Assembly: GCA_963782055.1 (NCBI GenBank)
Contig: CAWAIF010000003.1
Coordinates: 2,272,001-2,336,000 of the forward strand
Direction: 5' to 3'
DNA: 64,000 nucleotides
Origin: an uncultured delta proteobacterium
GTDB taxonomy: Bacteria > Myxococcota_A > Polyangia > Polyangiales > Polyangiaceae
Under the pieces are notes generated by a model. That model ran no database searches. It was given only the letters and a program-made list of their open reading frames with translations, and was not told the DNA's origin. Shown here piece after piece: positions 30 through 60,740 of this stretch (position 1 is the first letter of the stretch; the number at the start of each line of letters is the position of its first letter). Position numbers and translations under genes: made by a program.

Positions 30-290
30 ACAGGGGACCCGTCGCTGTCGACATGGACCCGCTCTCGCACCTCTTGCGCCTCTGCGCCGCCGTCCCCGCG
101 CCGCGCTTCCATACCGTCCGCTACGCCGACGTGCTCGCCTCCGCCAGCAAGCTCCGTCCCAAGATCGTCCGCCGTCCACCCGACCCGGCGACGGCCACGG
201 AGCAGGACGACGACAAGCCGAAGCGCTCGCGCTACTGGCCGTGGGCGGAGCTCATGGCACGCACCTTCGCGCTGGACGTCACCGCGCACA
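30..290 (+). pseudogene. IS91-family (Y2/HUH) transposase, C-terminal fragment
   Basis: MDPLSHLLRLCAAVPAPRFHTVRYADVLASASKLR...RYWPWAELMARTFALDV resembles the C-terminal region of myxobacterial IS91-type transposases; breaks off before the final CxxC. Confidence 0.8.
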
Positions 291-326
291 CGCTCGCGAG
301 GCTCCCGGCTCGCGAGCGAGCTTGAT

Positions 327-357
327 GCGGAGCCACGCTGCCGCGCAGCGGCTTCGT
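327..357 (+). other. Stem-loop immediately 5' of the intron insertion site
   Basis: GCGGAGCC-ac-GCTG-ccgcg-CAGC-GGCTTCGT folds (with G-T pairs) and ends 3 nt before the intron start; IIC introns insert downstream of hairpins. Confidence 0.6.
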
Positions 358-360
358 CCA

Positions 361-2252
361 GTGCGCCCAGCATGGGCATCAACCCGGAGGTGAAAGTCCT
401 TCCTGAAATTGGTCACAATGACAGAAGCGAACCACAAGGGCGGAACCGTGAGGGACCGTCTGGAGGAAGTGGGGAGCGAAGCCGCGGGCCGACGTACAGA
501 AATCGGATCGGAGGCGTGGCCGAGCAGGGCGAGCGGACTGGAACCCGCGAAGCTCTCGTGACCGAAGCTCGGCGGCGTATATCCGGCGGTCGTGCGGTGA
601 AGGTTGATGCTCTTACCTGGGGAGATCTCGCCTCGCGCCTGAAAGGGCGACGGCCGGCGACAACGTCGGACGGAGCGAGAAGTCAGCAGAGGCCGTAGTA
701 GCGGCGAAGGAGCCGGGCAGGGATCCCCCCGAACCCCGGAAGTCTCTATCGCTGCGAAGGGCCAAACGGAGAGGAGGGCGAAACGCCCATGGATCTCGAG
801 AACGCGCAGCCACAGAAGTCCAAGAGCGAGACGCCGACCGCCGCGGATGGTGAAGCCCCGAGCGACGACCGACGCGTGGAAGCGGATTCGGCGACCCATG
901 GAACCGAGCGCTCAGGAACGAGCGGGCTGATGGAGGCGGCGCTCACGCGCAAGAACCTTCAGGCCGCGCTGAAGCGAGTGAAGCGGAACAAGGGCAGTCC
1001 CGGCATCGACGGGATGACGGTGGAGGAGCTACCGGACCACCTTCGCGTGCACTGGCCGTCCCTCCGCGAGCAGCTGCTCGCGGGGACGTACCAGCCGCAG
1101 CCGGTGCGACGGCACGTGATTCCGAAGAGCGGCGGCGGCGAGCGACAGCTCGGCATCCCGACGGTGCTCGACCGACTCATCCAGCAGGCCCTCTTGCAGG
1201 TCCTGCAGCCTCGATTCGATCCGACCTTCTCGGAGCACAGCCACGGCTTCCGGCCGCGGCGCAGCGCGCACGACGCCGTGCGCGAGGCGAAGCGGTATGT
1301 GCAGCAAGGAAGACGATGGGTGGTCGACGTGGATCTCGAAGCTTTCTTCGACCGCGTCAACCACGACGTGCTCATGGGGAGACTGGCCAAACGAATCGAG
1401 GATCGGCGCGTGCTGGGACTCATCCGTCGCTACCTGAACGCCGGCATCATGGCGAACGGCGTCGTGATGGATCGCGACGAGGGAACGCCCCAGGGCGGTC
1501 CTCTCTCTCGCCAATGCTTGCGAACGTGCTCCTCGACGAAGTCGACAAGGAGCTGGAGAAGCGCGGACACGCCTTCGTGCGCTACGCCGATGACAGCAAC
1601 GTTTACGTGCGGTCACGGCGAGCGGGCGAGCGGGTCATGCAGGCGCTGCGGCGTCTCTACGCGAAGCTCCATCTCCAGATCAACGAGTCGAAGAGCGCGG
1701 TGGCACCCGTGCAAGACCGGAAGTTCCTCGGCTACACCTTTTGGTTGTCGTCGAAGAACGAGGTCCGCTGCACGATCGCGCGCAAGGCCCTCGACACGAT
1801 GAAGGACCGCGTGCGGCACATGACGAGCCGCATGCGCGGTCGGAGCCTGGCCCAGGTCTGCCGAGATCTGCGAGGGTACTTGCCAGGCTGGAAGAACTAC
1901 TTCCAGCTTGTCGAGCTCCGCACGCTCTTTCGCGAGCTGGACTCTTGGATCCGGCACCGACTCCGCGCACTGCAGTTGAAGCAGTGGGTGCGAGGAGTCA
2001 CCGTCTTCCGAGAACTGCGCCGACGGGGGATCCCTCCCGTCGACGCTCGCCGCGCGGCAGCAAATACGACGCGCTGGTGGCGAACCTCGGGAATGCGCGT
2101 CCTCAGCGTGGCTCTGCCGAACAAGCTCTTCGACGAGCTGGGGCTTCCCCGGCTCGACACGTGACCTCAACTCTCCGAACCGCCGGATGCGGACCCGCCT
2201 GTCCGGTGGTGTGGCAGGGGTCCCCGGGGAAACCCGGGGCCCCTATGCCGAT
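361..2252 (+). mobile_element. Group II intron, class IIC
   Basis: 5' end GTGCGCCCAGCATGGGC; short domain V GAACCGCCGGATGCGGACCCGCCTGTCCGGTGGTGT at 2177-2212 with CGC triad; domain VI ending CCCTATGCCGAT at 2252; RT ORF inside. Confidence 0.93.
789..2164 (+). pseudogene. ltrA: Group II intron reverse transcriptase/maturase, frameshifted at ~1501-1509, no endonuclease domain
   Basis: PGIDG, RQLGIPTVLDR, SHGFRP, GTPQGGPLS in one frame; PMLANVLLDEVDKEL...RYADD and FLGYTF in another. One extra CT in a CT run separates them. Confidence 0.9.
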
Positions 2253-2353
2253 ACCGTCGATTTCGCGACCGCGCACCCGCGCCACGCGACCGCCGCCGCG
2301 ACCCGGCGCGCTCACGCAATCGACTCTTACTTTATGCGAAGTGGGGCCGTCCG

Positions 2354-3187
2354 GTGTCACTGGAAGGACGGACCAGGGTGGTGATCCTGCCGGTCGACCA
2401 GGGCTTCGAGCACGGGCCCGCGCGCTCCTTCCAGCCCAACCCGGACGGCTACGATCCGGACTACCACCCGCAGCTCGCCGTCGACGCGGGCTGCAACGCG
2501 TACGCTGCGCCCCTCGGCTTCCTCGAGGCGGTGGCCGACCGGTACGCCGGCCAGCTCCCCCTCATCCTGAAGCTCAACAACTCCGACACCCTCGCCAAGG
2601 TCCCGCAGCCGTGCAGCGCGGTGACCGGCTCGGTGGAGGACGCCCTGCGCCTCGGCTGCGCGGCCATCGGCTACACGATCTATCCCGGCTCGGGCGATCG
2701 CAACATCATGTACGAGCACCTGCGCGAGCTCATCCTGGAGGCGAAGGCCCACGGCCTGCCGACCATCGTGTGGGCGTACCCGCGCGGCGCCGGCCTCTCC
2801 AAGGAGGGCGAGACCGCGGTGGACGTGTGCGGCTACGCCGCGCAGATCTCCGCGCAGCTCGGCGCCCACGTCATCAAGATCAAGCAGCCGAAGGATCACA
2901 TCGAGCAACCGGAGGCGAAGAAGGTCTTCGAGAAGTACTCCATCCCGACCAAGACCCTGTCCGACCGCGTGCGCCACTGCGTGCAGAGCGCATTCAACGG
3001 CAAGCGCATCCTCATCTTCTCCGGCGGCGAGTCGCGCGGCACCGACGAGCTGCTCGCCGACATCAAGGAGATCGCCAAGGGCGGCGCCTTCGGCTCCATC
3101 ATGGGCCGCAACGCCTTCCAGCGGCCGCGGAAGGAGGCCTTGAAGCTCCTCGCCGACGTGATCGCGATCTACAAGGCCGCTTCCTGA
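2354..3187 (+). CDS. fbaB: Class I fructose-bisphosphate aldolase (DhnA/FbaB type), apparently lacking its N-terminus
   Basis: VILPVDQGFEHGPARSF, LKLNNSD, WAYPRG, AHVIKIK, FSGG, GSIMGRNAFQR motifs. Confidence 0.85.
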   Translation: MSLEGRTRVVILPVDQGFEHGPARSFQPNPDGYDPDYHPQLAVDAGCNAYAAPLGFLEAVADRYAGQLPLILKLNNSDTLAKVPQPCSAVTGSVEDALRLGCAAIGYTIYPGSGDRNIMYEHLRELILEAKAHGLPTIVWAYPRGAGLSKEGETAVDVCGYAAQISAQLGAHVIKIKQPKDHIEQPEAKKVFEKYSIPTKTLSDRVRHCVQSAFNGKRILIFSGGESRGTDELLADIKEIAKGGAFGSIMGRNAFQRPRKEALKLLADVIAIYKAAS

Positions 3188-3337
3188 CGGACGCCGCGCC
3201 GCCACAGGCGCCCACAACGTGGGCGTTCACCCCCTACTCCCCAGGGAGTATCGACAAGCTCGCTGCATGGAGATGCACTGGACCGATGCGGGGCCATGCG
3301 CAGCGAACGCTGGCGCGGTGCCCCGGGGAGGACCATC

Positions 3338-5167
3338 ATGAAGCGAACGAGGGCTCTGGCGGTGTACGCGTTGACGTTGACCGGCGTCGTGGGGGGGGGG
3401 GTAGCCTGTAATGTTCAGGCTGTGGGCAATCCCGCCGTGCGCGTCGGTTTCGATGACCTGATCTTCGGCACCAACGATGTCGTCGGCGGACCTGGCGGCC
3501 CCGTCACCACGCAGACCGACAGGCTCGACCGGGCGATGACGACCCCGTTCTTCCACTGGGACTTCCGGAGCTGGCAGCTCGTCGGCAACCGGCTGAGTGG
3601 GGACCTTTCAGACTTCGGCCTCCCCACCTACTCGCTCTCGCTCGAGCCCTACGTCCGGTACGGATTGACCACAGCCTTCTGGCGGACCCTCTCGGCCGCC
3701 ACGATCGTGCCCGGCCAGACCGGCACCACGGATCTGTGGAACCAGCACGAGGTCCTTCTGTTCGCCCGCGATCCGGTCGAGATGAGCACCTACTTCCGGA
3801 ACTTCATGGCCGATCTCCTGAGGGCCCACAATCCGCAGAACGACGACCAGACCCAGCAGGATCTCGACACCTACTTCAACTCCGCGTGGCGCGATCTCTA
3901 TGCCGGGGCGCAGGTCCCGGCCGCTGCGACCCTCTGGTATCCTCCGCAGAAGGGGACGACCCCCGGGGCCCTGATCACCGCCAACATCACGAGCTCCAGC
4001 TTCTGGGGCGCGGACACGCCGGCGGGGCCGGGCGCCGACCCCAATCCCGATCTCTCCGGCTCGGTCAAGGCAGCGAAGGTCATCAACCACGGCATCTGTA
4101 GCCTGCTCGTGCCCTACGTGTCCGCGGCCCAGGACGGCTCCGGGCTGATGGAAAAGCTCGCGACCGACGGGCCGCTCGCGGTGGCGAAGCTGGTCTTCAG
4201 TCGCTACGGCGACTCCGCCGACGTGGAGAAGCGGTGGCTCAACGCCGCCCCCTTCCTCGACTTCACGGAAGAACAGGAGGACGCGCAGCTCGGCGGATTC
4301 TTCCTGAACTTCAACGTCCAGTTGAACGTGCCGGTCCTGGGTATCACCGTGGGTGGACCGAACCTCTACTACCACAACGCGCTGCGGTGGCGCCTGTACG
4401 ACGGTCGCCTCGCGGCGGACGGCGAGGTGCTGGACAAGTTCGGACGGGGGAGCGGCGCGTCCGACGCGATGGTGACGTTCGACGACGTCCTCACGCGCCA
4501 GCTCGACCACACGCCGCGCACCGGGGACGACCCAGCCTCGCTCGCCGAGGCGATCTTCCAGGAGGCGAACGCCCAGCAGGTCTACGAGGGAGACACTGGT
4601 ACGGTAACCTGCACGCAGATCGTGCCCGGCCAGGATTCGCTCGGCTACGATCCGGCCGAACCTTGTTACGACTTCATCAAGCAGATGAAGAGCGACGTGC
4701 ACGAGGCGCTGACCTACCTGTCGGCCCCGCTCGGCCTCACGCCGGAGCAGCAGCAGCAGGTCGAAGACTCGCTCGTGGCGACGGACTTCCCCGGTGGTTC
4801 ATTGAAGAACTTCCGCTGCGCGAAGTTCCCCGAGGACGCCGAAGGTCGTTGTCAGTTCGTCACCCGCGCGAAGCGCATCAACGTCCTTCCTGACGGGGTC
4901 GAGGCGGTCTTCGTCGACGACCTTCACGAGCTGTCCAATCCGGTCTACCCGCTCTGGCTTCATCTGCTGTTCGACGCCATCAAGGGCACGCCGCGCGCAT
5001 ACCAGAAGCTCTGCGGGGCTCCGGTCGCCCAGGTGCCCGGTTCCCTCGCCAATCGGACATTTCGAAGCGTCGGCACGGACTATGTGCACTACCGCTGCGA
5101 TTCGCCGACCAAGCAGCCCGACGGTCATTATACCTGCGGCAGCATCACGCAGGAGACGACGCCATGA
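3338..5167 (+). CDS. Large secreted protein/lipoprotein of unknown function
   Basis: GGAG RBS, MKRTR plus hydrophobic stretch and VAC lipobox; GC3-biased ORF with scattered Cys. Confidence 0.8.
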   Translation: MKRTRALAVYALTLTGVVGGGVACNVQAVGNPAVRVGFDDLIFGTNDVVGGPGGPVTTQTDRLDRAMTTPFFHWDFRSWQLVGNRLSGDLSDFGLPTYSLSLEPYVRYGLTTAFWRTLSAATIVPGQTGTTDLWNQHEVLLFARDPVEMSTYFRNFMADLLRAHNPQNDDQTQQDLDTYFNSAWRDLYAGAQVPAAATLWYPPQKGTTPGALITANITSSSFWGADTPAGPGADPNPDLSGSVKAAKVINHGICSLLVPYVSAAQDGSGLMEKLATDGPLAVAKLVFSRYGDSADVEKRWLNAAPFLDFTEEQEDAQLGGFFLNFNVQLNVPVLGITVGGPNLYYHNALRWRLYDGRLAADGEVLDKFGRGSGASDAMVTFDDVLTRQLDHTPRTGDDPASLAEAIFQEANAQQVYEGDTGTVTCTQIVPGQDSLGYDPAEPCYDFIKQMKSDVHEALTYLSAPLGLTPEQQQQVEDSLVATDFPGGSLKNFRCAKFPEDAEGRCQFVTRAKRINVLPDGVEAVFVDDLHELSNPVYPLWLHLLFDAIKGTPRAYQKLCGAPVAQVPGSLANRTFRSVGTDYVHYRCDSPTKQPDGHYTCGSITQETTP

Positions 5168-5985: not shown

Positions 5986-6305
5986 CCCAGCCTGACCCTC
6001 ATCGTCTGTCCTCACCGGAATACCGCCACGTACCGCCACGAAGTCGTCGTCCTGTACGCTGACGAGCAGCTTCGCGTCCGAGCGAGGCGCGGCCGAGGAA
6101 CATCCAGTCCTTGGCCGTCCTTGGTGTTGTCTCCCACGCTCTTCCACCGCCAGCGCCCCACGCTCCGTCGTGACGCCACCGGGCTGCGCTCTCGGTCTGC
6201 GTGATCGCTTCCCGCGGTGGGAGCCGTGGGACAAGAGCGAGACGCCGGGGCACCGCGGTACGAGCGCGAGCCCCCCGACGTCGTCGGTGACCGGTGCGGG
6301 TGGCT

Positions 6306-7103
6306 CTACGCGACCTCCTGCATCGCCGCCTGGACATGCTCGGTGGTGACGGACTTCGCCTTGGCGATGGCGGCGGCGAAGAGTGCGTGATGGGCGAGGC
6401 CGTTGGCCTTGCGCGGCAAGCCGCTCGACGCCTGGTAGATCGCCTCGACGGTCGGCGGCTCGAAGAGCGGGACGTCGGTGCCGGCGAGATGGAGGCGATG
6501 GGCGAGGTAGGGGCCCATCTCCTCGCGCGTGAGGCCGCGGACGTGGGCGCGCACGACGACGCGCTGCGCGAGGGCGTCGAGGGCTGCCATGCTCATGCGG
6601 CGGCGCAGCTCGGGATGGCCGACGAGCACGACGGTGAGGCGGTTCTCGGAGTCCATGGCGTAGTTGGTGAGCAGGCGCAGGTCCTCGAGCAGCTCGGTGC
6701 GCAGGTGGTGGGCCTCGTCGACGATGAGCACGGGGCGCAGGCGGTTTTCGGCGCAGAGGCGCGAGACCTCGCCGCGTATCTGCCGGAAGAGCGCAGCGCG
6801 ATTGCGCTCGGTCGGCAGGCCGAGCTCCCAGGCGATGGACTTGTAGAGGTCCATGACGTTGCCCGTGGTCATCGAGACGTAGAGCACGCGGTAGAGGCCG
6901 GTGTGCAGGCCGGCGACCAGGTGGCGGCACGTCGTCGTCTTGCCGGAGCCGCTGTCGCCGGTGACGAGGCCGATGCCGCGCATGTCGACGAGATGGCGCA
7001 GACGCGCGCCGAGCTCGGCGAGCGAGGCGGACTCGAAGAGGTCGTCGGCCGCGAGGTCTTTGTCGAAGGGGTGGCGCGTGAGCGCGAAGTGCTTGCGGTA
7101 CAT
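6306..7103 (-). CDS. ExeA-like AAA+ ATPase, transposition helper
   Basis: MYRKHFALTRHPF start, Walker A GDSGSGKTT, Walker B LIVDEAHHL, GLPR motif; coupled to transposase. Confidence 0.92.
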   Translation of the reverse strand: MYRKHFALTRHPFDKDLAADDLFESASLAELGARLRHLVDMRGIGLVTGDSGSGKTTTCRHLVAGLHTGLYRVLYVSMTTGNVMDLYKSIAWELGLPTERNRAALFRQIRGEVSRLCAENRLRPVLIVDEAHHLRTELLEDLRLLTNYAMDSENRLTVVLVGHPELRRRMSMAALDALAQRVVVRAHVRGLTREEMGPYLAHRLHLAGTDVPLFEPPTVEAIYQASSGLPRKANGLAHHALFAAAIAKAKSVTTEHVQAAMQEVA

Positions 7104-8482
7104 CAGAACAGCTCCTTGTCGGCGTCGTCGTCGACGAGCTCGCGCATGGCCAGGCCCTCGTGGAGCTCGACGCCAGCTCCGGTGGGGATCTCCAGGCTTC
7201 TGGTGGCGGAGTTGCGCTTGACGAAGCAGTTGGCGAGGACATCGACGCGGCGAGCGATCTCGATGCGGCGGCCCTCATGCCAGACCTCGACGTTGCGCTT
7301 GTCGGGCTTGCGCGCCGGGTCGAAGCGGAGCGTGACGCGCTCGCCGACGAGCGCGGCGTCGACCTCGAAGGCAACGCCGTCGAGGGTGACGGTGCGGTCC
7401 TTCTGCACCCTCCTCTTCTGCTCGGCGAGGAAGTGGTCGCCGAGGTCGGCGGCGGGCATTCGGACGCCGTCGCTGGTGCGGGCCCACTTGTCGGCGGGGG
7501 TCTCGTCGCCGAGGCCGCGGTGCGGCGCGTGGTGGTACTCGCCCTCGACCCACGCGGCGAGCGCGCGATTCATCGCGTCGAGGGAGACGAGCTGCGCGGA
7601 GTGGAGCAGCGGCAAGAGCTGCATGCGCGTGGTACGGAACCATCGCTCCATCTTCCCCTTGCCCTGGGGCTTGTACGGCTTGGCGTGGATGAGCGCGATG
7701 CCGAGCTTCGCGCACACGATCGCGAGCTGCTTGGAGCGGAACGCCGAGCCGTTGTCGACGTAGAGTCGCTTGGGGATGCCGCGGCGACGCACGGCCTGCT
7801 CGAGCACCGAGAGGTAGCTGATCGTCCCCTCGGAGAACGTGAAGGCCGCGTGAGGTACGATCCGTGTGGCGTCGTCGATGAACGCGATGAGGTAGGTCTG
7901 TCGCTGGCGGCCCGCATCGCGGATCTTCGGGCCGTACATCACGTCGCTCATCCAGAGGTCGCCGGCGCTCTCGTGCTCGAAGCGACGCCGGTCTTTGCTC
8001 GTCGGCTCCTCGGGCTGCTTCTTCATGAGCCCGCGGCGCGCGAGCACGCGGTGCACCGTCGACTCGGGGAGCGCGACCTCGTCGGTGACGACGTGGGCGT
8101 GGTCGGCGCGTGCGACCTTGATCAGCGCGGGGATCGAGAGCTCGGGCGAGTCCTCCTTCATCTGGCAGAGCAGGTCGACGACGTGCATCGGGATCGACCG
8201 CGTGCTGCCCTGGTCGGCTCGCACGCGCGGCGCCAGCGCATCGAAGCCACCTTGGCGGTAGGCACGGAGCCAGCCGCGCATCGTCTCCGGCGCGACGTGC
8301 CGGCGCAGCGAGCCGGGGATCGTGTAGTCGAGCTCGGCCTTCTTTGCGAGCAGCGCATAGAGGCCGCGGTGGTGCGGCTCGAGGTGCACGAGGTCGGCGA
8401 TGACGCCGTAGCGGAAGAGCGCGATCTCGCGCCGGCGCTCGTCGATCTCGGGTGTCGGTGTGTCGTGGGAATCGGTGTGCAT
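7103..8482 (-). CDS. DDE integrase/transposase (rve core, Mu-like C-terminus)
   Basis: LWMSD, AFIDDATR, LYVDNGSAF, GKGKMERWFRT, YHHAPHRGL. Confidence 0.92.
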   Translation of the reverse strand: MHTDSHDTPTPEIDERRREIALFRYGVIADLVHLEPHHRGLYALLAKKAELDYTIPGSLRRHVAPETMRGWLRAYRQGGFDALAPRVRADQGSTRSIPMHVVDLLCQMKEDSPELSIPALIKVARADHAHVVTDEVALPESTVHRVLARRGLMKKQPEEPTSKDRRRFEHESAGDLWMSDVMYGPKIRDAGRQRQTYLIAFIDDATRIVPHAAFTFSEGTISYLSVLEQAVRRRGIPKRLYVDNGSAFRSKQLAIVCAKLGIALIHAKPYKPQGKGKMERWFRTTRMQLLPLLHSAQLVSLDAMNRALAAWVEGEYHHAPHRGLGDETPADKWARTSDGVRMPAADLGDHFLAEQKRRVQKDRTVTLDGVAFEVDAALVGERVTLRFDPARKPDKRNVEVWHEGRRIEIARRVDVLANCFVKRNSATRSLEIPTGAGVELHEGLAMRELVDDDADKELF

Positions 8483-8600
8483 GGCGGATGCCTTCGGTGC
8501 GCTCGCCCGGACCCTTTCCGAGCGGCGTGCCGGCAAGCTCGGCGAGATCGCCGCCGGCAGCCGGCACCCTTTCGTGTGGGCCGGCCGCGGCGACCCCCGG

Positions 8601-9173
8601 TCACCCGGTCGCCCGCGTGCGCAATCCGAGAGGGACGGGCAACGCACCGAGGTGCCGCTCGCCGAGCTCGCGCAGCACGACGAGCACGCGATGGCACCCG
8701 AGCGCCTCGCGGAAGGCGGCGAGCGTCGGCCTGACGCCTGCGAACCGCTCGGGCATCAGCGTCGCGATCGCGAGCAGCGCGGCGCGCACCGCCGATGCCC
8801 GCCGACGGATCGACCTCAGCGCGCACACGAGCCCGACGGCGTCGTCGGCGTCCGGCGGGTGCACCGCGTCCACCGCCGCCGCGACACCGCCGGCGGCCTC
8901 CACCGCGGTGACGACGTCTTCGACCGCGGCGAGCGTGCCGGAGAGCCGCGCCGCGAGGAACGACGGCAAGAGGCTGATCGACGCCCGCTGCTTGGGGCAC
9001 CACCAGCGCGCGACGCGCACGCCTGCGGGCTCGACGCGGGGGTAGCTCCCGAGCTTCTCGAGGCCGCAACCGCCCTCCGGGTGGAACGGGCAGCTGTCGA
9101 GAATTGCGCTTTCCCACGCACGTTGAGTAACGTAGCCCTCGTCGGAGAGCGGGCATTTCCACGGAACTTGCAC
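8601..9173 (-). CDS. Transposon-associated hypothetical protein with Cys/His cluster
   Basis: CPFHPEGGC...RWWCP motif; first gene of the module; GTG start estimated. Confidence 0.7.
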   Translation of the reverse strand: MQVPWKCPLSDEGYVTQRAWESAILDSCPFHPEGGCGLEKLGSYPRVEPAGVRVARWWCPKQRASISLLPSFLAARLSGTLAAVEDVVTAVEAAGGVAAAVDAVHPPDADDAVGLVCALRSIRRRASAVRAALLAIATLMPERFAGVRPTLAAFREALGCHRVLVVLRELGERHLGALPVPLGLRTRATG

Positions 9174-9395
9174 GGCGCTGACACGAGCCCGCACGTGGTC
9201 CAGACGTGCGGGCTCACTCCTTTTGTCCGACGCATGCTCGCGCGCCGGCACGTCTCACCACGAATTCCTGGTGATCGCCGCCGGCCTGCGCCGCGTCTCA
9301 GGTGCCGGACTGCGCCAACGTCTCAGGAGATTGAACGGGCGCAGAGACCGGGAGAGACCAAGCGGGGGATCACGAGGGAAGGCGAGGCCCAACAA

Positions 9396-9434
9396 CCCCT
9401 CGCACTTCAGGTGCGCGAAGCCCCGGCAGAGAAG
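9396..9434 (-). pseudogene. IS91-family transposase micro-fragment (Zn-binding region)
   Basis: Translates LLCRGFAHLKCEG. Confidence 0.65.
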
Positions 9435-9439
9435 GCGCA

Positions 9440-9650
9440 GCCAGACGTTCTGCCCAGCCACGCGGCGCACCTACGCTCGCCCGGGAGCGAACGTCGTCTC
9501 GATGTCGGCAGGACCTGGGAGCACGCCTTCGCGTGACAGGTGCCTCACCGCCACGAACACGGCGCGGAAGGCGGGCGATCCCGCAACGATGCCCAGCCGG
9601 TCGAGGCTTCGCCGGAACGTCGCGCTCAGCCGCGTGAAGCGTGCGGCCAC
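9440..9650 (-). pseudogene. Putative RelE/ParE-like toxin, internal stop and 3' truncation
   Basis: VAARFTRLSATFRRSLDRLG...FAPGRA*VRRVAGQNVW; TAG at 9471-9473; overlaps a small acidic upstream gene. Confidence 0.5.
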
Positions 9651-11014: not shown

Positions 11015-11124
11015 ACACGGATCCGTCGTTGATGAAGGTCTGGATGCGTTGATCGCCAGGTGGGAAGACCTCTGTTACCGCGTTCGGGAGGTTCGAGCCA
11101 CCATGGTCGCTCCAGTAGACGGCC

Positions 11125-12569
11125 CATGGCCAGATCCTTTGGACATAACGTGGCGGAATGATGGAAATAAATCGGGCGCCTTTCTCGTTGTTCGGTTGCG
11201 ACACCAACAAGGAGAGGACGCCCGATGACGACGAGAGCTACCCGAGCCACGAGCAGCCGTCCAGACCCGAGCGAAGAGGCGAGCGCGGTGGAGGAGCAGC
11301 TGCAGCGGACCTTCACGCCGGCGGTCATCGACGAGCTTCGGGGCCGCACCGGCTACAACCCGCGGCAGCGGCGCGCCACCGCGTTCCGCCTGGTGCTCAC
11401 GGTCGTCGAGGGGTTCCTCGCGGGCCAGACGCTGTCGTTCGAGTCGCTGCGGGCGATCTTCGTGAGGCGCTTCGGCTTCATGCGCCCGTGCCCGTTCCAG
11501 AAGCGGTTCAAGCAGGAGTCGGCGGCGGCGTTCTTCCGCGCGGCGCTCGAGCACCTCGTGGCGTCGGTGACGAAGGCGGCGGGCCTGGAGCTGAGCGGGC
11601 CGCTCGCCCGCTTCGAGGACGTGCGGGTCTACGACGGTACGGGGCAGCGCGTGCCACCGCGCGGGCGCGAGCTGCTGCCGGGATGCACCAAGGGCAAGGC
11701 CGGCACCAAGTGGGTGATGGGCTACAGCATCAAGACCGGCCTGCTCGAGCACGGCGTCTCCGACGCGGAGACCGCGTCGGAGACGCCGCTGTGGCGGAAG
11801 CTGGTCCCGAGCTTCACGCGCGGGGTGCTCTACCTCTTCGACCTCGGCTTTTTCGAGCGCGCTCTGTTCACGCAGGCGAAGGCTGCCGGCGCGCACGTGC
11901 TGATGCGCCTCAAGACCACGGCGAAGGTACGCGTGACCGCGCACATCTCGGAGAACGGCCACACCCCGCTCCACAACTGGTCGCTTGGCTACTACCTGCA
12001 GAGCGTGTCGCGCAAGCGCGGGACGATCTTCGACCTCGACGTGACGTGGGGCAAGGGCAAGGACACCGTCGCATTGCGGCTCGTGGGACTCGCGCACAAG
12101 TCGACCGTCATCCGCTGGTACCTGACCACCGTGCCGCGCAGCGTGCTCTCGCCACGGCAGATCATCCAGACCTACCGACTCCGCTGGCTGATCGAGCTGC
12201 TCTTTCGCGAGCTGAAGCAGACCGCCGACCTCGGCCGCTCCTTCACCGCCGATCCCCACGCGATCAAGGCGCTCACCTACGGCGCGATGCTCGCCCACGC
12301 GCTCGTGCGCTCGGTCAGGATCCAGGCTGCACTCGCGCGCGACGTCCCTCTCGAGCAACTGCGCCCCCTGGCGACGTTGCACGTCGTGCGCGCCTACGCG
12401 CGGGACCTGGTCGACGCCCTCGTCTCCCTGAGCACCGCCGCGTGGACTGCCGTCGTGACCACCGTGGGCGCGGCACTCGTCGCTCTGGCACGCGAACGAC
12501 AACCTTCACGCTCCAGGAAACGAATCGCCCTCAAACTTGGGGCGATCGGTGCTTAAGAGATCGGGCATG
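11125..12569 (+). mobile_element. IS4-family insertion sequence
   Basis: Imperfect IRs CATGGCCAGATC / CATGCCCGATC; direct repeat GTAGACGGCC at 11115-11124 and 12570-12579. Confidence 0.93.
11225..12556 (+). CDS. IS4-family DDE transposase
   Basis: VYDGT, LFDLGF, YRLRWLIELLFRELKQ (YREK motif). Confidence 0.93.
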   Translation: MTTRATRATSSRPDPSEEASAVEEQLQRTFTPAVIDELRGRTGYNPRQRRATAFRLVLTVVEGFLAGQTLSFESLRAIFVRRFGFMRPCPFQKRFKQESAAAFFRAALEHLVASVTKAAGLELSGPLARFEDVRVYDGTGQRVPPRGRELLPGCTKGKAGTKWVMGYSIKTGLLEHGVSDAETASETPLWRKLVPSFTRGVLYLFDLGFFERALFTQAKAAGAHVLMRLKTTAKVRVTAHISENGHTPLHNWSLGYYLQSVSRKRGTIFDLDVTWGKGKDTVALRLVGLAHKSTVIRWYLTTVPRSVLSPRQIIQTYRLRWLIELLFRELKQTADLGRSFTADPHAIKALTYGAMLAHALVRSVRIQAALARDVPLEQLRPLATLHVVRAYARDLVDALVSLSTAAWTAVVTTVGAALVALARERQPSRSRKRIALKLGAIGA

Positions 12570-13035
12570 GTAGACGGCCTGCCCTGCGCAGCCCGAAGCA
12601 GATCCTTCGTCTTCGCATTGGCGCCTGTAGATATTCGCAAGGTCGGGTTGAAGCACCGGCGCGGTAGGGTCGCGCGAGATGCCCATGTAGAAGTCCATCC
12701 CGTCGTACTCCGAGGCGTGATCTGTCAGGACGCAGTGGCTCTCGGTCCACCGCACGGGATTGATGCACGAGACGGCATAACGGCATAAGGTGGTTTGTGC
12801 ACCTGGAGCTGGTCGTCCCGGAAGTACTTGTAGTACGCGAACGTGCACGTGCTGGCGCCGCTGTTCCAGAGGTTGCCGGCGGAGAACTGCGCGAACCCCT
12901 CGATCTGCGCCCCGCCCTGGTCCTCGGTCGACTGCAGGCAGTGGATGGTGTTCCCGGTCGGGTTCAAGAAGTGGAAGGAGAACAGGCGTCGGACGCCGTC
13001 AAGCATCGGCCGCCTTCCCGCCGTAGACTCGCCGC

Positions 13036-13359: not shown

Positions 13360-13498
13360 ACCGCGCTCGCTCCGATCCCGGTTCGGGGATCCCGTCGAGG
13401 TGGCGTCCGGCCTCGTAGATGTGGCGCAAGGTGGTCGAGGCGTCGCCGGCGCCGCCGCTGGATGCGATGCGCTCACCTCGCCCGCGAGCGGCGGCGCG

Positions 13499-13616
13499 CT
13501 CGTGCAGGAGCCGCGCGGGATCAGGAGGCCCCTCGAGGGGCCCGGCGAGCCGCACGAGGTCCCGCGGCGCGCGCCGGCTCGCGCTCCTCCCTACCGCAGC
13601 GCCGTCATCCGCCGCA
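13499..13616 (+). repeat. IS91-transposase 3'-end relic, copy 1
   Basis: LVQEPRGIRRPLEGPGEPHEVPRRAPARAPPYRSAVIRR; shares a 34-nt identical block (13532-13565) with 56673-56706. Confidence 0.8.
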
Positions 13617-13744
13617 TCGCCGGCGCCATCGTCGCCGCCTGACCTCTGCCCGGGAGGGGAGCGGTCCGATCTACTTCGCACAGCCGATCGCCGCCCACCA
13701 CTTCTCGGAGCGCGCGCGTCTCGGGTACGCGCTAGGCTCTGGGC

Positions 13745-15430: not shown

Positions 15431-15494
15431 CGCGTGGGGCCGTCCGGTCTCACTGCAAGGACGGATCAGGGTGAGCACGCGCGAGGCAGACTTG

Positions 15495-15527
15495 CGCCAG
15501 GAGCTGGAGGGCTACCTGGACTGCGGC
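15495..15527 (+). pseudogene. IS91-family transposase micro-fragment
   Basis: Translates RQELEGYLDCG. Confidence 0.65.
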
Positions 15528-41519: not shown

Positions 41520-41751
41520 CGCGAAGAGCCCGCCGGCACTCGCCGCTGGACCAACGCACCAGGCCGACGGAAGTGTCCTCGCCACCGCCTGGTTCGGCTG
41601 CCTGCTGGCGCGACCATGGCGGCTCAGGCGCGGTCACGCCGCCAGCGGCGCCCCGGGGGCAGGCGTCGCGTGGAAGGCCGCGCTCGAGTGACGTACGCTC
41701 TCGTCGCAGGGGTAGGAGCCGAGACGCTTCCTCCCCAGGGTGGAGAGTGAC

Positions 41752-50740: not shown

Positions 50741-50747
50741 CGCCGCA

Positions 50748-53585: not shown

Positions 53586-53701
53586 TCGCGGAGTATACCA
53601 GCGCCGGGCGGTGCGCGCGGGACTGCGACGTTCTGCCGCGGCGTCGCGCACCTGGAGTGCGAGGCGGCGATTGTCCCGCCGGATTGTCGTACTCTCCGCG
53701 C

Positions 53702-54238: not shown

Positions 54239-54361
54239 CCGGTTGCGTGCGAAGGGCCAGAGCTGCGGCACGCCATCGCTTGTAACCCCATGTAATGCGC
54301 GTCCCGGCCGCGGCCGCGTACAATCGTGCTGGGTTCACCTTTCTTGCGCGAGGAGATCCGC

Positions 54362-55492: not shown

Positions 55493-55609
55493 ACACCGTC
55501 GCGCCGCCAGGGGCGCCCCGGAAGGCTCGCGGCTCGCGGAAAAGCGCGCTTGAATCGCGCACTCACCGTGCGTTGCTATTCACGCCTGCATATGTATCCT
55601 GGCTGCAGC

Positions 55610-56569
55610 ATGCTGCACGTTCTTCGGATCACGCTCGCGGCACTGCTCCTGGGGGGGTGCGTCGGGGATACGCCCAACGGCGACGACGCTTCGACCAATG
55701 GCAATGTCGCTGCCGAAGCGGCCGTGGACGCGTCGGACGACGTCGCGTTCGACGCCGCACCGGAGATCGGGGACGCGGCGTCGTGTACGCCGGACGCGAA
55801 TTTCTGCATCGGCGATCTGCTCCAGAAGTGCAACGCGCAGGGAACGGCGTCGTCCCTCGTGACCGATTGCACGACGCTCGGCGAGAAGTGCGTGAACGCC
55901 GAGTGCGAACTCGACGGCCTCGTGGCGCACTGGAAATTCGACGAAGGCACGGGCACCGTGGCGAAGGACTCGTCCTCGACGCACGCCGACGCGACGGTGA
56001 TCGGCGCGACCTGGACGGTCGGCAAGTACGGCGGCGCGCTCTCGTTCTCCGGCAGCGGTACCTACGTCGACGCGGGCGATGTGCTCAACAATCTGACCCT
56101 TCCCATCACAGCGATGATGTGGGTCAACATGCCCGACAACGGCAACGGCGGATTCGGGCTGTTTTCGTCGGACGACGGCAGCACCAACACTGCGGGGTGG
56201 TCCGTTCAGACCGCGTTCGGGCCCGCCGATGGAGGGCTGGCCAACGGGCTCGTGTTCGCCAGGTACGGCGACGACACGTGCAACTGTCTCGCGGGCCGCC
56301 GCGTGGGAGCCGGACCGATACTCGGCACGGGCAAGTGGCAGCACCTGGCGTTCGTCATCCAGGGCCCGAGCAACATGACCTTCTACCGCGACGGCGTTGG
56401 CCTCTCGGCCACCTCGTACAGCGGCACGGGCGGCACGATGAAGTCCAACGCCAGCCCCTTTCGGATCGGCGTCGACGGCGCCGGGTACTTCGTCGGCTCG
56501 ATCGACGACGTGCGCGTCTACAGCCGCGCCCTGTCGCAGACCGAGATCCAGACCGCGATGGCGAACTGA
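55610..56569 (+). CDS. LamG/ConA-like domain lipoprotein
   Basis: LGGC lipobox; LVAHWKFDEG, WQHLA, GSIDDVRVYSRALS. Confidence 0.9.
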   Translation: MLHVLRITLAALLLGGCVGDTPNGDDASTNGNVAAEAAVDASDDVAFDAAPEIGDAASCTPDANFCIGDLLQKCNAQGTASSLVTDCTTLGEKCVNAECELDGLVAHWKFDEGTGTVAKDSSSTHADATVIGATWTVGKYGGALSFSGSGTYVDAGDVLNNLTLPITAMMWVNMPDNGNGGFGLFSSDDGSTNTAGWSVQTAFGPADGGLANGLVFARYGDDTCNCLAGRRVGAGPILGTGKWQHLAFVIQGPSNMTFYRDGVGLSATSYSGTGGTMKSNASPFRIGVDGAGYFVGSIDDVRVYSRALSQTEIQTAMAN

Positions 56570-56576
56570 CGCTCCT

Positions 56577-56758
56577 CGCACCTTCGCGGTGGACGCGCAG
56601 AAGTGCCGGTGTGCGAGGGACGCATGAAGCGCGCCGGGATGGTGCAGGAGCCGCGCGGCATCCAAGAGGGTTCTCGAGGGGCCCGGCGAGCCGCACGAGG
56701 TCCCGCCGCCCGGGGCCCGCGCTCCGCCCCACGATCGGCAAGCGCCGTCATCCGCCGC
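56577..56758 (+). repeat. IS91-transposase 3'-end relic, copy 2
   Basis: RTFAVDAQKC/PVCEGRMKRAGMVQEPRGI/LEGPGEPHEVP...SAVIRR; DNA identity blocks with 13499-13616. Confidence 0.8.
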
Positions 56759-56864
56759 ACACGAATCGGCGGAACGACGAGGCGAGACGCGCCCGGTGGG
56801 GGGGGTGCGTCTCTGGGCGCGCTGCTTGCAATCCCCGCCCGCGCCGACCACTCTCCCGCTCGCG

Positions 56865-57623
56865 ATGAAGTCGCCTACCCTCGCTCTCGCCGCCAGACAC
56901 GTCCGCGCGGGTTGCGGCGTGCTGCTCATGGTCGGGTGCGGTGGTGGGAGCGGCCCTCCACCTGCGTCGCCTGCGGCCACAGAGGTGCGCCTGCCCGTCG
57001 CGCCTGCACCTTCGGCCTCGTCCGCGAAGCCGGCCGTCGCCGCGTGCCCGGCCCCCGCCGGCGCCGTCTCCGGGACGGAGCCGGACGATGCCTGCGGCGA
57101 CGCGCAGGCGTGCGAGCGCGCCTGTGACGCGGGCGGCGCCCCGGCGTGCGTGACCGCAGGCAACATGGACGCGGTGACAGACCACCCGGACCGTGGCAAG
57201 GAGCTGCGGCTCTACGAGCGCGCGTGTCGTCTGGGCAACGTGCTCGGGTGCACCAACTATGGTGCGACGGTGCGCCTGCAGCGCCACGACCCGTCGAGCC
57301 TCGCGTGCGCCGCCAGGCTCTTCGGGCTCGCATGCGCCGCCAGCGAGGCGGAGGGTTGCGCCATGGCCGGTGCGGCGTATGCCCGGGGCGAAGGCGTCCC
57401 GCAAGATCGCTCCAGGGCGCTGGAGGCGCTCCTCAGAGGCTGCGACAGCGCGCTCGACCAACCCGACGGCGTGGCGACGGCGTGCGAGTACCTGGTGGGC
57501 GTCCTGCAGACCGTGCCGTCGAATCCGCTCGTGTCGCAGGCCATCGACCGAGCGACCCGCATCGGGTGCCGCGCCGGCTCCGCGAAGCTGTGCGCCGCGC
57601 CGGGAAGCAGCGCGCCGCCGTGA
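56865..57623 (+). CDS. Sel1-like repeat lipoprotein
   Basis: MVGC lipobox; YERACRLG, GEGVPQD repeats. Confidence 0.85.
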   Translation: MKSPTLALAARHVRAGCGVLLMVGCGGGSGPPPASPAATEVRLPVAPAPSASSAKPAVAACPAPAGAVSGTEPDDACGDAQACERACDAGGAPACVTAGNMDAVTDHPDRGKELRLYERACRLGNVLGCTNYGATVRLQRHDPSSLACAARLFGLACAASEAEGCAMAGAAYARGEGVPQDRSRALEALLRGCDSALDQPDGVATACEYLVGVLQTVPSNPLVSQAIDRATRIGCRAGSAKLCAAPGSSAPP

Positions 57624-57641
57624 CGTGTGGTCGTGGCCGTG

Positions 57642-59327
57642 TCAGAGGTTCATCCAGAAGGTGAATTGCTGCGCCTCGTCGCTCGACGAGCATGTCGCGA
57701 CGTCGAGCGCGGCGCCATCGCGGGAGAGACAGCGGCTCTGGTCGAAGTGCTGGACGCGACCGCGCAGGGCCCACATCTGCTCCACCGTGTCGTCGCAGTT
57801 GCCGACCACGACGCTCGCGCTGGCCCCCGCGTCGGCGCCGCCGTCGAGCGACAGACAGCGCGGCGTCGCCGTCGCCACCGCGCTCACGAAGCCCCCGCGC
57901 CCGTCGTCCCAGCGCTGGCCCGCGCTGCCGTCGCACACCTGGAGCGTCACCTTCGTGCCCTTCGCCGCGCTCCCGGCGTCGACGCACCAGCCGTCGACGC
58001 GGAGCTCGCCCGTCCGCGGCCTGTAGTCGAACCGCTGATTCGCCGCGCCGTGACATGGCCACTGGATCAGGTGCTTGCCCGCGCCGTAGTCCGCGGCGGG
58101 GACATCGAGGCAGTAGCCGGTGTTCCCGTTGACGACCTCCTCGTTGCGAAAGCGCCAGATCTGATCGCTGCCATCGCACGACTGCTGTCTCACCGCCGCC
58201 CCCGACTCCGTCGCGTCCGGTTGGACGCACTCGTCACTGCCGTAGTTCTCGAGGTAGCGGTCCTTCGTCATGAACCAGTTCTGTCTCGCGTTGGTCTTGC
58301 TGCAGGTCGCCATCTGCAGGGCGACGCCGTCGACGTTCGACGGGGGCTCGGCGCAGCGGCCGCCGTTCTGCAGCGTGCCGGTCCACCACCACTTCGCGTA
58401 CGGCCCCGACGCGGCACCCTTGCACGCGCCGGCGTCGCACGTCGCTCCGGCGCCGCAGCCACCGCAGCTCAGCGCCTTGCCGCAGTTGTCGCTCGCGCTC
58501 ACCGGGCCGCACGCGAGGCCGAGCTGCGCGCACGTCTTGGGGGAGCAGCTCTTCACCTGACACGTCGACCACTGATGGTTCGACTGGCACGTCTTCGTGG
58601 CCCCGCCGCCGCAGCCGGCCGTGGTCTTCTCTCCGATGTCGGAGCAGACGTTCTTGGCGCGAATCAAGCAGTGGAAACCGAGCCCGTAGCGGCCTTCGAT
58701 GGTCCCGTTCGCGTACCTGGTGTGGTCCTCGACGAGCAGCTCGGTGCGATCGGTCCAGATGGCGTTCTGCTGGTAGAACCACACCTTCGACGTGGCGCTG
58801 TCGTAGGAGGAGACCACGACCGTGTGACCGTGGAAGACGATCACGTCGCCCGACTCCGGCTCCGGGACGTGCGAGCCCTGCGTGTACACGTCGAAGTTGG
58901 GGTTGCCGCCGTACTGGTTCGCCCCGCACATCGTGCCCGTGTAGATGTGGTTGCCGATGTCGTACTTCGCGCCCATCGCGCGGAAGTGTCGCATCACCAG
59001 ATCGGTGCACTCGAAGGCGCGCCCGGTGGTGGCCTTGGCGCCGTTGCAGGTGTCGCCGTTCGAGCAGCAAGCGTGCCCGGTCGAGTTCTTCGGGCCGTTG
59101 GACAGCACCTCGGTGCCCCAGAACGCGTGACCGGTGTCGGTCCCGCACTTGCCGACGCCCTTGCAGACGACGGCCCCCTTGTACGTGCCGCTGGTGGGGG
59201 TGAAGCATCCGCTCGCCTTCAGGGGCGAGCCGGATTGCCCGGGACTCGGGTCGCTCTCCACGGCACACCCCGCCATGACGATGGCGAAACCCAGGACCAC
59301 GGAGGCGATCTTCTTCGAGGAGGACAT
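57642..59327 (-). CDS. CHAP-like amidase + ricin-B lectin lipoprotein
   Basis: MAGC lipobox; FECTDLV, GDVIVF.GHTVVV, YQQN; repeated CLD...QxW. Confidence 0.85.
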   Translation of the reverse strand: MSSSKKIASVVLGFAIVMAGCAVESDPSPGQSGSPLKASGCFTPTSGTYKGAVVCKGVGKCGTDTGHAFWGTEVLSNGPKNSTGHACCSNGDTCNGAKATTGRAFECTDLVMRHFRAMGAKYDIGNHIYTGTMCGANQYGGNPNFDVYTQGSHVPEPESGDVIVFHGHTVVVSSYDSATSKVWFYQQNAIWTDRTELLVEDHTRYANGTIEGRYGLGFHCLIRAKNVCSDIGEKTTAGCGGGATKTCQSNHQWSTCQVKSCSPKTCAQLGLACGPVSASDNCGKALSCGGCGAGATCDAGACKGAASGPYAKWWWTGTLQNGGRCAEPPSNVDGVALQMATCSKTNARQNWFMTKDRYLENYGSDECVQPDATESGAAVRQQSCDGSDQIWRFRNEEVVNGNTGYCLDVPAADYGAGKHLIQWPCHGAANQRFDYRPRTGELRVDGWCVDAGSAAKGTKVTLQVCDGSAGQRWDDGRGGFVSAVATATPRCLSLDGGADAGASASVVVGNCDDTVEQMWALRGRVQHFDQSRCLSRDGAALDVATCSSSDEAQQFTFWMNL

Positions 59328-59400
59328 GAGCGGACCCTACACGCCGCGGACCCGACGGTCCTTGCCCGGGGGCGCCAATCTCTTGCCCGTGGACGCGCGA

Positions 59401-60417
59401 TCACGTCTTTGGCGGGCGCGCGCGCCGGAACTCGGTCGGCGAGACTCCGCGCCAGCGCTTGAACGCCCGCGTGAACGCCGCCGGCCCGTTGAAGCCCACC
59501 GAGAAGGCGATCTCCTGCATCGAGAGCGCCCCCGCTTCGAGCTCGCGGACGGCGTGCTCCTCGCGCATCCGGTCGATGAGACGCTGGTAGGTCAGTCCTT
59601 GCTCGCCGAGCGCGCGCTGCAACGTCCGTTCACCGACGCCCAGTCGCGTCGCGAGCGTCGCGAGCGAGAGGCTGGAGTCGGAGAGGAGGTCCGGGATCAG
59701 CCGGCGCGCCCGGTCGAGCAAGTCGCGCTCCGACGGGACACGCGCGAGCAGATCGTCCGCGTGACGCCGCACAAGCCGGTGCAGCGCGAAGTTCGCCGAC
59801 ACGAGCGGGAGCGACAGCAGCTCCGCGCCGAAGACGAACTCGCCGACGGGTTGGGCGAACTCGACCGGGCACCCGAAGAGCGCCTCGTGCTCGCGCGCGT
59901 CGCTCGGCGCGCTCCGCATCAGGCGAACGACGCGAGGGTGGAAGTCCCCGGTCGTGGCGGCGCGGAAGCGCTTGAACGCTCCGGAGAAGAAGTAGTCCCA
60001 CGCGTGGACGAGCGGCTCGACCCAGCTCGGGGCGATCCAGTGCTGGAAGCGCGCGACGCCGCCGTCCACGACCAGCCCGATGCGCCAGATGTCGGTGATG
60101 ACGCGGTAGTACCGTTCGACGGCGCGACAGCCGTCACCCAGCGTCGGCGCGGTGAGAAAGAGGTAGTCGAGCACGTCGTAGCTCCCGAGCTCCGCGTGCT
60201 GCCCCGCGTGGAGGCCGAAGAAGGGATCGCCGCTCATCTCCGGCGCGAGGCCCCACGCCTGGGCGAGCACGACGGTGGGAATCGACGTGTCGATCTCGAG
60301 CTGGGCGGACGTCACCCCGACGCGTGAGCAGAGCTCGCCGGGGGCGACCCCCAGGGCCTTCGCGGAGCGCGTGAGCGCACGCAGCAGAACCATCGCGCTC
60401 GAGCCGGGTGCACGCAT
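59401..60417 (-). CDS. AraC family transcriptional regulator
   Basis: LGVGERTLQRAL, EIAFSVGF...AFTRAFKRWRGVSP. Confidence 0.93.
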   Translation of the reverse strand: MRAPGSSAMVLLRALTRSAKALGVAPGELCSRVGVTSAQLEIDTSIPTVVLAQAWGLAPEMSGDPFFGLHAGQHAELGSYDVLDYLFLTAPTLGDGCRAVERYYRVITDIWRIGLVVDGGVARFQHWIAPSWVEPLVHAWDYFFSGAFKRFRAATTGDFHPRVVRLMRSAPSDAREHEALFGCPVEFAQPVGEFVFGAELLSLPLVSANFALHRLVRRHADDLLARVPSERDLLDRARRLIPDLLSDSSLSLATLATRLGVGERTLQRALGEQGLTYQRLIDRMREEHAVRELEAGALSMQEIAFSVGFNGPAAFTRAFKRWRGVSPTEFRRARPPKT

Positions 60418-60740
60418 GGGGCTACGTGGAGAATCCTACCGCCTTTGGCCCCCGGTGTGGACACACCTCTTCTTCCCCCGTACGCGCGCCGCCGCAACGC
60501 CCACGGACCGTCGCGGGGCGCGACTGGTCGAGGAGCGCGCGACCATTGTGCGGGTAGCTGGCGCCTGCCGCGCGAACGGGTCCGCGGTGGTGGGTCACGA
60601 GGTTTGTCGGTCTCCGCCTGCTCGGGAAAGCCGTGGAGGCTCAGGAGAGGTTGGGCCCGCGAAGCAGACCACCCGCTGGTCACGGTGGAACGCGTTCGAC
60701 CTCCGGTTCCCGCAGCGGCGCCGACGTCCACCACCAAAAA

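Follow-up and report, generated by a model that had tools for sequence, protein, structure and literature searches.

Decayed pieces of an ISCR-like IS91-family element in a variable zone of a Polyangiaceae genome

A 64,000-bp stretch of an uncultured Polyangiaceae genome (GenBank assembly GCA_963782055.1, contig CAWAIF010000003.1, positions 2,272,001 to 2,336,000), here called the window, carries short pieces of one ISCR-like IS91-family element, with a transposase of 473 aa, in spacers between unrelated genes. A first-pass annotation made from the sequence alone had read the spacers of the window as relics of a single transposase, and proposed an integron-like accretion site at which each gene unit arrived with, or inserted into, an IS91 element that then decayed. 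We find seven pieces of the 473-aa element in 7 of the ~60 spacers, six of them on the plus strand. They are probably what is left of a few old insertions that decayed and were shuffled within a tolerant variable zone spanning 120 kb or more. No observation shows the neighbouring genes to have come in with these pieces. The layout as such is already known, with ISCR elements, IS801 right-end fragments and IS91 one-ended transposition as the closest parallels.

Positions below are window positions unless prefixed with a contig (C2 or C3); the window corresponds to C3:2272001-2336000 in a 7.58-Mb, three-contig genome. The G+C content is 66-75% throughout, at which raw open reading frame lists are uninformative, so genes were called using a codon-usage model trained on the same genome. 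The caller was simple and self-made, and its calls were then scanned against Pfam. The 61 genes called include an aldolase, an FGE-sulfatase-like protein, PQQ propellers, SUKH/WGR, Stig1 repeats, TetR, AraC, radical SAM, lectins, a CLC channel and many unknowns. Given these heterogeneous functions and a gene order that is not conserved in relatives, the earlier description of a mosaic of unrelated genes is fair.

Relics of a single transposase type

Twelve relic sites had been proposed, five described as clear, at 30-290, 9396-9434 on the minus strand, 13499-13616, 15495-15527 and 56577-56758, and seven as weaker. Genome-wide searches with the Pfam profiles Y2_Tnp and Zn_Tnp_IS91 hit 21 and 25 places, respectively, and touch the window only once, at its 5' edge, which agrees with the earlier statement that no intact copy is present. 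Because these profiles matched the window only once, we moved to the genome's own copies and a clade-specific profile hidden Markov model (HMM). Each of the twelve sites, extended by 30 bp per side, was searched by tblastn with the genome's own three IS91 subtypes (388, 473 and 601 aa), using 200 dinucleotide shuffles of that site as the control. The five clear sites are real relics, given that none of the 200 shuffles reached the observed score at any of them. All five match one 473-aa ISCR-like IS91-family transposase, as expected from the claim of a single protein type, and every motif quoted in the first-pass annotation is present in the intact copy of that transposase. The seven weaker sites are noise: 67, 163, 62, 76, 180, 7 and 123 of the 200 shuffles reached the observed score, and the match at the site with 7 is confined to a proline-rich low-complexity tail. 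The flagged weaker spacers also lack any mobile-element domain and have profile scores within the control range. Only the strongest fragments score (5 of the 12 sites, the rest falling within the shuffles), an outcome that the annotation itself had listed as counting against its proposal. The simplest alternative, that the motifs are accidents of translating 70% G+C spacers, holds for the seven weaker sites. As an account of the array it has next to no credibility, being refuted at the five clear sites by the shuffles and by DNA identities of 84-100% to an intact element in the same genome.

The clade HMM combined six sequences, of which this genome supplied two and named myxobacterial metagenome-assembled genome contigs the other four, and was run at maximum sensitivity on all six frames of the window. 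Four of the five clear sites scored 123.8, 43.1, 15.7 and 7.0 bits, and no site outside the clear ones exceeded 4.2 bits; for comparison, the maxima were 2.7-8.7 bits in 20 windows of the same genome and 3.4-7.0 bits in five shuffled windows. The relic at 9395 is within profile noise, because its 7.0 bits fall inside these maxima, and the 11-aa piece at 15495 is not among the HMM hits over the window. Both rest on DNA identity to the intact copy, over 48/52 and 35/35 bp. For the first of them, claimed at 9396-9434 on the minus strand, tblastn aligned 12/12 identical residues (aa 67-78). The relic at the 5' edge extends 311 bp upstream of the window, to aa 230, and as a whole (W-311 to 279) corresponds to element positions 2190-2732 at 85.4% identity to the intact copy (blastn). 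Its part inside the window is 92.8% identical to a copy at C3:6775680-6775958, and positions 1-145 match Y2_Tnp positions 87-179 at 29.8 bits (cut-off 20.9). The relic at 56577 begins no more than ~10 bp from the stop of a Laminin_G_3 gene (55610-56569). The earlier claim that relics occur on both strands holds only just, with four of the five real sites on the plus strand and one on the minus strand.

A DNA search using the intact element and its flanks found two solo right ends that are not visible by translation and were absent from the first-pass annotation. The first (41634-41710) stops 30 bp ahead of a plus-strand gene, and the second (55499-55562) lies 7 bp past the stop of one gene and 47 bp ahead of the start of the next, overlapping a terminator-like hairpin at 55556-55572. 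A scan of the two ends for sigma-70-like outward promoters returned 0 sites, as it did for shuffles, and is poorly suited to 70% G+C. The DNA search found no copy of the left (terIS) end in the window; three lie within 48 kb upstream. For annotation, the short open reading frames 53-325 and 13502-13642 are transposase stumps, and the spacers concerned contain dead transposon ends that should not be taken for regulatory elements or small genes.

The single intact 473-aa copy is located at C3:2732850-2734271, 460 kb from the window, and its transposase matches Zn_Tnp_IS91 and Y2_Tnp at 62.2 and 76.7 bits, both over the cut-offs. Both histidines of the HUH motif, a part that no window relic spans, are invariant in 5/5 aligned sequences. 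The first catalytic tyrosine is invariant as well, whereas the second is a proline in the 473-aa and 601-aa types and two relatives and is kept only in the 388-aa type, so that the 473-aa type lacks the two-tyrosine (Y2) feature. ISCR transposases, too, are not known to have more than one catalytic tyrosine. With the NCBIfam equivalog NF033538 (cut-off 125) the 473-aa type stays below at 106.9 bits and the 388-aa type passes at 389.7 bits. The best NCBIfam family hit of the 473-aa type is NF052416 (ISCR clade Ia) at 237.1 bits and E 3e-70, against a cut-off of 925. By its domains and HUH motif the protein belongs to the IS91 family, and its best family hit marks it as ISCR-like, a distant relative of ISCR clade Ia and not a member of it.

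The left end of the element is a 60-bp module with a G+C-rich hairpin (6-bp stem, GGGG loop), and the right (oriIS) end runs to a common terminus in eight of nine aligned copies. In seven of the nine copies the alignment closes with GCTC followed by C or T, after which the flanks differ; these bases may belong to the target or to the element. Folded as single-stranded DNA, none of the ends is better than shuffles (z -0.96 to +0.66; right ends +0.51 and +0.66), which gives no structural support.

Derivatives of the 473-aa element occur 4-12 kb left of the window, where two copies that are 94.7% identical (C3:2259727-2260395 and C3:2267xxx) have a DUF559 gene in place of the transposase. They keep the left end and a 390-bp right-end module, and share 260 bp beyond the left end. 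DNA matching this DUF559 gene is found at more than 40 other places in the genome (73-90% identity), and the intact 473-aa element keeps only the terminal hairpin of the DUF559 family between its left end and tnpA.

Table 1 Pieces of the 473-aa element (upper rows) and other mobile or duplicated features of the window
Feature	Position	Strand	Evidence
473-aa relic, aa 322-411	1..279	+	tblastn 155 bits, 0/200 shuffles; HMM 123.8 bits
473-aa relic, aa 63-79 (zinc-finger region)	9395..9444	-	92.3% over 52 bp; tblastn 31.2 bits, 0/200 shuffles
473-aa relic, aa 425-473 plus 27 bp downstream	13496..13668	+	88.1%; terminal 150 bp of right end missing; tblastn 81.6 bits, 0/200 shuffles; HMM 43.1 bits
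473-aa relic, aa 55-66	15493..15527	+	35/35 bp equal to intact copy; 30.0 bits, 0/200 shuffles
Solo terminal right end (oriIS-type), 473-aa element	41634..41710	+	77-79%; alignment reaches shared terminus
Solo terminal right end, 473-aa element	55499..55562	+	84.4%; alignment of right-end copies
473-aa relic, frameshifted, aa 405-465	56577..56757	+	84.3%; terminal right end missing; tblastn 50.8 bits (aa 399-465), 0/200 shuffles; HMM 15.7 bits
388-aa IS91 type, left-end-proximal 84 bp, inverted	277..360	-	95-100% to 11 genomic copies
Group II intron remnant	361..2253	+	D1-D4 RNA 442-762; frameshifted reverse transcriptase/maturase 789-1802, 1514-2164
388-aa IS91 type right end, terminal 129 bp	2253..2381	+	95-99% to right ends of ~12 copies
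DeoC/LacD aldolase gene, segmental duplicate	2379..3400	+	93.9% to C3:83564-84585; PF01791
Gene of unknown family, recent duplicate	3424..4857	+	98.1% to C3:6203555-6204995
IS21-like element (rve transposase plus AAA_22 helper), chimeric	6125..9394	-	Pfam rve, Mu-transpos_C, AAA_22
IS4-like element (DDE_Tnp_1, PF01609)	11124..12570	+	simple recent insertion; 10-bp direct target repeat
388-aa type 50-bp right-end unit, diverged	15434..15473	+	92.5-95% to ~25 copies

Density, orientation and age of the pieces

The genome holds 22 pieces of the 473-aa element at 75% identity or more, seven of them in the window and two just upstream. This zone has the highest 64-kb counts in the genome, 6-7 pieces against a mean of 0.18, and 90% of windows have none; a 64-kb frame set exactly on the window contains 6, since the piece at its edge begins 311 bp further upstream. 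Relic density, for which the first-pass annotation had asked for a comparison with the genome background, lies far above it. The 70 kb upstream are as repeat-rich as the window, hence the variable zone extends over at least 120 kb. No tRNA anchor for an island was found.

The orientation of the pieces depends on their position in the genome, with 12 plus and 2 minus below 3.5 Mb and 5 minus and 1 plus above it, and the co-orientation seen in the window follows this genome-wide strand bias. Such position-dependent orientation is expected for single-strand transposons, whatever the local history. An explanation by replichore was tried and rejected: the strand counts agree with it, but the GC-skew extremes give no clean origin or terminus.

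DNA searches of six same-genus genomes found no conserved gene order, only scattered single-gene matches. Among 20 same-genus 20-kb neighbourhoods, 17 hold one window gene, two hold two and one holds none, and 0 of the 20 keep the window order; conserved order in relatives, which had been named as evidence against accretion, is thus not seen. Synteny is detectable at such divergence, since all six genomes retain a four-gene block that lies elsewhere. All relatives used were species representatives with at most 87% DNA identity, so lost synteny cannot date the arrival of any gene.

Identity to the intact copy is 77-92% for the 473-aa relics, apart from 100% for the 35-bp piece, and overlapping right-end modules share 81% with each other. 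The IS4-like, IS21-like, intron and 388-aa-type pieces are 95-100% identical to other copies, and the segmental duplications 94-98%. Given the low identity of the relics compared with the near-identity of the later elements, the relics are old and the overprint is recent. Elsewhere in the genome, a 530-bp right-end fragment with an intact terminus (C3:4431122-4431652) is 98% identical to C3:6775319-6775849, part of a frameshifted near-full-length copy, and therefore the 473-aa family or its surrounding DNA underwent a recent duplication somewhere in the genome.

The window must have received two or more insertions of the 473-aa element, given the overlaps in transposase coordinates, and the number of pieces allows at most seven. 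The pieces had been described as not collinear, which fails for one pair: W-311 to 279 and 13496-13668 are collinear on the same strand and only 40 bp apart in element coordinates, and possibly represent a single copy that 13.2 kb of later material now interrupts. The pieces at 15493-15527 and 9395-9444 meet at element positions 1687-1698, with a 12-bp overlap in transposase coordinates. A longer fragment on C2 starts at ~1698, where 15493-15527 ends, and the piece ending at 9444 starts 11 bp earlier; positions 9397-9435 are 97.4% identical to C2:3065-3103, with which this C2 fragment begins. Three fragments with one breakpoint argue for one copy that was disrupted and afterwards duplicated and rearranged, and against independent decay. 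A single inversion behind the 9395 and 15493 pieces was also considered and discarded, given that un-inverting it (worked by hand) yields no collinear element; the breakpoint shared with the C2 fragment fits duplication of one disrupted copy better than inversion.

Later insertions and a second IS91 type

The left 13.7 kb of the window are dense with recent elements, and much of the mosaic there was made by them. The group II intron remnant matches RF02001 at 114.3 bits and RF01998 at 43.4 bits, has the halves of RVT_1 in two frames plus GIIM (Pfam), and is 99.4-100% identical to copies at C3:5.21 and 6.19 Mb. The deoC duplicate begins exactly at the right-end terminus of the 388-aa IS91 type; its other copy is the core deoC-type gene, with homologues in all six same-genus genomes (82-87%). 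The other copy of the second duplicated gene, C3:6203555-6204995, abuts an IS4-like end at that locus. The IS4-like element in the window has 11 full-length copies elsewhere (99.2-100%). The IS21-like element lacks a target duplication, lies directly against the relic at 9395 and is made of two halves that match separate loci at 100% and 99.8% identity. Those two loci, C3:2506511-2508008 and C3:2520737-2522513, are partial copies, one corresponding to the left half and the other to the right half; they lie 12.7 kb apart in opposite orientation, which suggests a possible IS21-mediated inversion there. Among 20 extra open reading frames from flagged and long spacers, no mobile-element domain was found except the second half of the group II intron reverse transcriptase.

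The second IS91 type, with a 388-aa transposase, contributes three pieces to the window (277-360, 2253-2381 and 15434-15473). The first terminates the 473-aa relic at 279; in its 11 genomic copies the same 84 bp lie ~940 bp upstream of tnpA, just inside a 52-bp left end. The second abuts the deoC duplicate, and its last 50 bp are identical to ~20 further copies. The 50-bp unit was considered as a bare solo end or an insertion target, and both were rejected because the solo copies carry the 52-bp left end of the same element.

Outside the window, ~20 mini-elements of ~102 bp, 96-100% identical, consist of the 52-bp left end of the 388-aa type joined straight to its 50-bp right end. They lie at C3:4411489-4450608 and also at 5.20-5.27 Mb, and in the window only 2332-2381 and 15434-15473 are related to them. 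At C3:4.41-4.45 Mb, 14 right-end units occur within 40 kb, 13 of them co-oriented and ~11 joined directly to a left end; they separate blocks of 1-5 mostly unique genes, and one pair is in tandem with the right end abutting the left end. The 102-bp units look like natural mini-IS91 elements that were recently active. One of them has beside its left-end side a four-gene block (C3:4412989-4419266) that is an 81%-identical second copy of C3:2345728-2350348, ~10 kb right of the window; the four-gene block is the one conserved in all six same-genus genomes. The 388-aa type also carries a 281-aa tyrosine recombinase directly upstream of tnpA (C3:2729129-2729974 and other full-length copies), with an integron-integrase subfamily as its best NCBIfam hit (198.9 bits in two stretches, cut-off 265). 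Some IS91 members carry such a tyrosine recombinase gene.

How the array may have formed

In the reading that we consider likely, an ISCR-like IS91 element with a 473-aa single-tyrosine HUH transposase, a hairpin left end and a defined right end would have inserted several times long ago, and the inserted copies would have lost their transposase genes by deletion. Later events would then have cut and moved these copies, one relic through the IS21-like element and another through the second IS91 type with its intron, leaving seven short pieces of which six are on the plus strand in line with the genome-wide bias. The neighbouring genes would not have been brought in by the 473-aa element. The order of these events and the separate origin of the neighbouring genes are inferred; what is observed is which element the pieces come from, how many there are, how old they are and where they lie, together with the later insertions and the lost synteny.

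Several observations weigh against this reading. At 38 times the genome mean, the density is unmatched elsewhere in the genome; decay alone is insufficient for this, so that local hopping, a tolerant zone or accretion is needed. The gene at 55610-56569 lies tightly between a solo right end and a right-end module truncated at its 5' side, and three right-end pieces have plus-strand genes starting 30-77 bp behind them, an arrangement also described for ISCR1 (PMC6218425). The argument from replichores is weak: the cumulative GC skew has its maximum at 3.5 Mb but its minimum at 1.5 Mb. The unconserved gene order is compatible with delivery of units from outside.

One rival is a fossil ISCR-type gene-gathering array, which is the first-pass idea in its known ISCR form and which we regard as unlikely, if worth weighing. 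Units would have come in by one-ended rolling-circle transposition or by insertion beside an earlier oriIS end, building a co-oriented chain whose transposase genes then decayed. The ISCR-like transposase, the position of the window as the densest spot for the 473-aa element, the co-orientation of six of the seven pieces, the bracketed gene, the closely following plus-strand genes and the lack of synteny in relatives all favour such an array. So do the shared 260 bp beyond the left end in the two upstream DUF559 derivatives, each with left end and right end, and the tandem mini-elements of the 388-aa type elsewhere, in which the right end abuts the left end with no spacer. However, traces occur in only 7 of ~60 spacers, which does not fit units that each arrive with an IS91 element, and the window has no left end. 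The genes beside the relics are never repeated in the genome and no unit of cargo plus end recurs. The shared left flank occurs a third time, at C3:2224185-2224609, without any right end; that copy cannot have arisen by one-ended transposition and speaks for plain segmental duplication. Among the solo right ends the left boundary varies (about 115, 70 and 50 bp) with no common tetranucleotide, and the co-orientation is genome-wide. We saw no product of one-ended transposition in the window, where left boundaries are fuzzy at 77-84% identity and no flank cargo is repeated. By the account given in PMC6218425, transposition had not been demonstrated experimentally for any ISCR member as of 2018, and the authors of the IS801 study ascribe most genomic fragments to reorganisation, not to one-ended transposition (PMC3189936).

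Site-specific accretion of the integron kind, in which a recombinase adds cassettes at short repeats and the IS91 pieces are bystanders or sites, is very improbable. The recombinase of the 388-aa type, with its integron-integrase best hit below the cut-off (198.9 vs 265), and the co-oriented array of 102-bp mini-elements at C3:4.41-4.45 Mb are in its favour. Against these, none of the 80 window proteins scanned with Pfam has a Phage_integrase domain, the 388-aa type has only two end units in the window, neither a complete mini-element, and the ends fold no better than shuffles. The repeats lack a terminal GTTRRRY-like core, and there is no attC among the Rfam hits over gathering score (only two group II intron matches), although no search with an attC model was made. 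The window resembles integron arrays in having short repeats between unrelated genes, mostly in one orientation, and differs from them in having no integrase among its proteins and repeats at 7 of ~60 spacers instead of every junction.

A wider version of rolling-circle accretion would make the window an old, worn part of gene shuffling that is still running in this genome. ISCR-like and IS91 elements and their miniatures would add gene blocks head-to-tail at existing ori ends, and the active front would be the 102-bp mini-elements at C3:4.41-4.45 and 5.2-5.27 Mb, possibly aided by the recombinase. We consider this improbable; if true, myxobacteria would have a counterpart of ISCR gene gathering that is chromosomal and not tied to resistance.

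Decay and shuffling of a few old insertions remains our preferred reading, and it can be set beside the known systems. As in ISCR elements such as ISCR1 of complex class 1 integrons, the 473-aa element has an HUH transposase with Zn_Tnp_IS91 and Y2_Tnp, its best match is ISCR clade Ia, and it has a single conserved tyrosine. ISCR1 right (oriIS-side) ends are described as sitting just upstream of unrelated genes (PMC6218425), as do right ends in the window. Unlike ISCR elements, the window element is chromosomal, myxobacterial, old and decayed, without recognised resistance genes or an integron 3'-conserved segment; its NF052416 score is 237 against a cut-off of 925, and its solo ends gave 0 sites in the outward promoter scan, which suits high G+C poorly. 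No resistance genes were recognised among the Pfam hits of the window proteins.

For IS801 in Pseudomonas syringae, partial copies, many with a right end, are described as clustered near accessory genes; fragments are diagnosed there as products of one-ended transposition when the right end is intact and the left boundary falls at a tetranucleotide resembling the left end (PMC3189936). The window similarly holds partial IS91-family copies near accessory genes, many keeping the right end, but it does not show the tetranucleotide, and its boundaries are fuzzy at 77-84% identity and differ between copies. The two ends of IS91 itself are described as differing in function, carrying subterminal hairpins and lacking terminal inverted repeats, and failure of termination as mobilising DNA beyond terIS (PMC13181058). 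The left end of the 473-aa element has a G+C-rich hairpin; the window, unlike products of IS91 one-ended transposition, has neither a left end nor a recurring co-mobilised flank.

If the plain reading of decay holds, the window is another case of decayed ISCR/IS91 debris marking the seams of a variable zone, and its main use is in annotation. Resistance plasmids of gamma-proteobacteria are the best-known setting of ISCR-like elements; in this genome an ISCR-like family litters a myxobacterial chromosome and likewise leaves right ends ahead of unrelated genes. With an intact copy, near-identical miniatures and many fragments in one genome, this could be a natural system for testing whether ISCR-type elements move.

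The cysteine-rich repeats (15925-16690) of the Stig1-domain gene at 15585-16640 (minus strand) match dozens of loci in this genome and in relatives at 68-84% identity, and the gene belongs to a large repeat-protein family, not to a mobile element.

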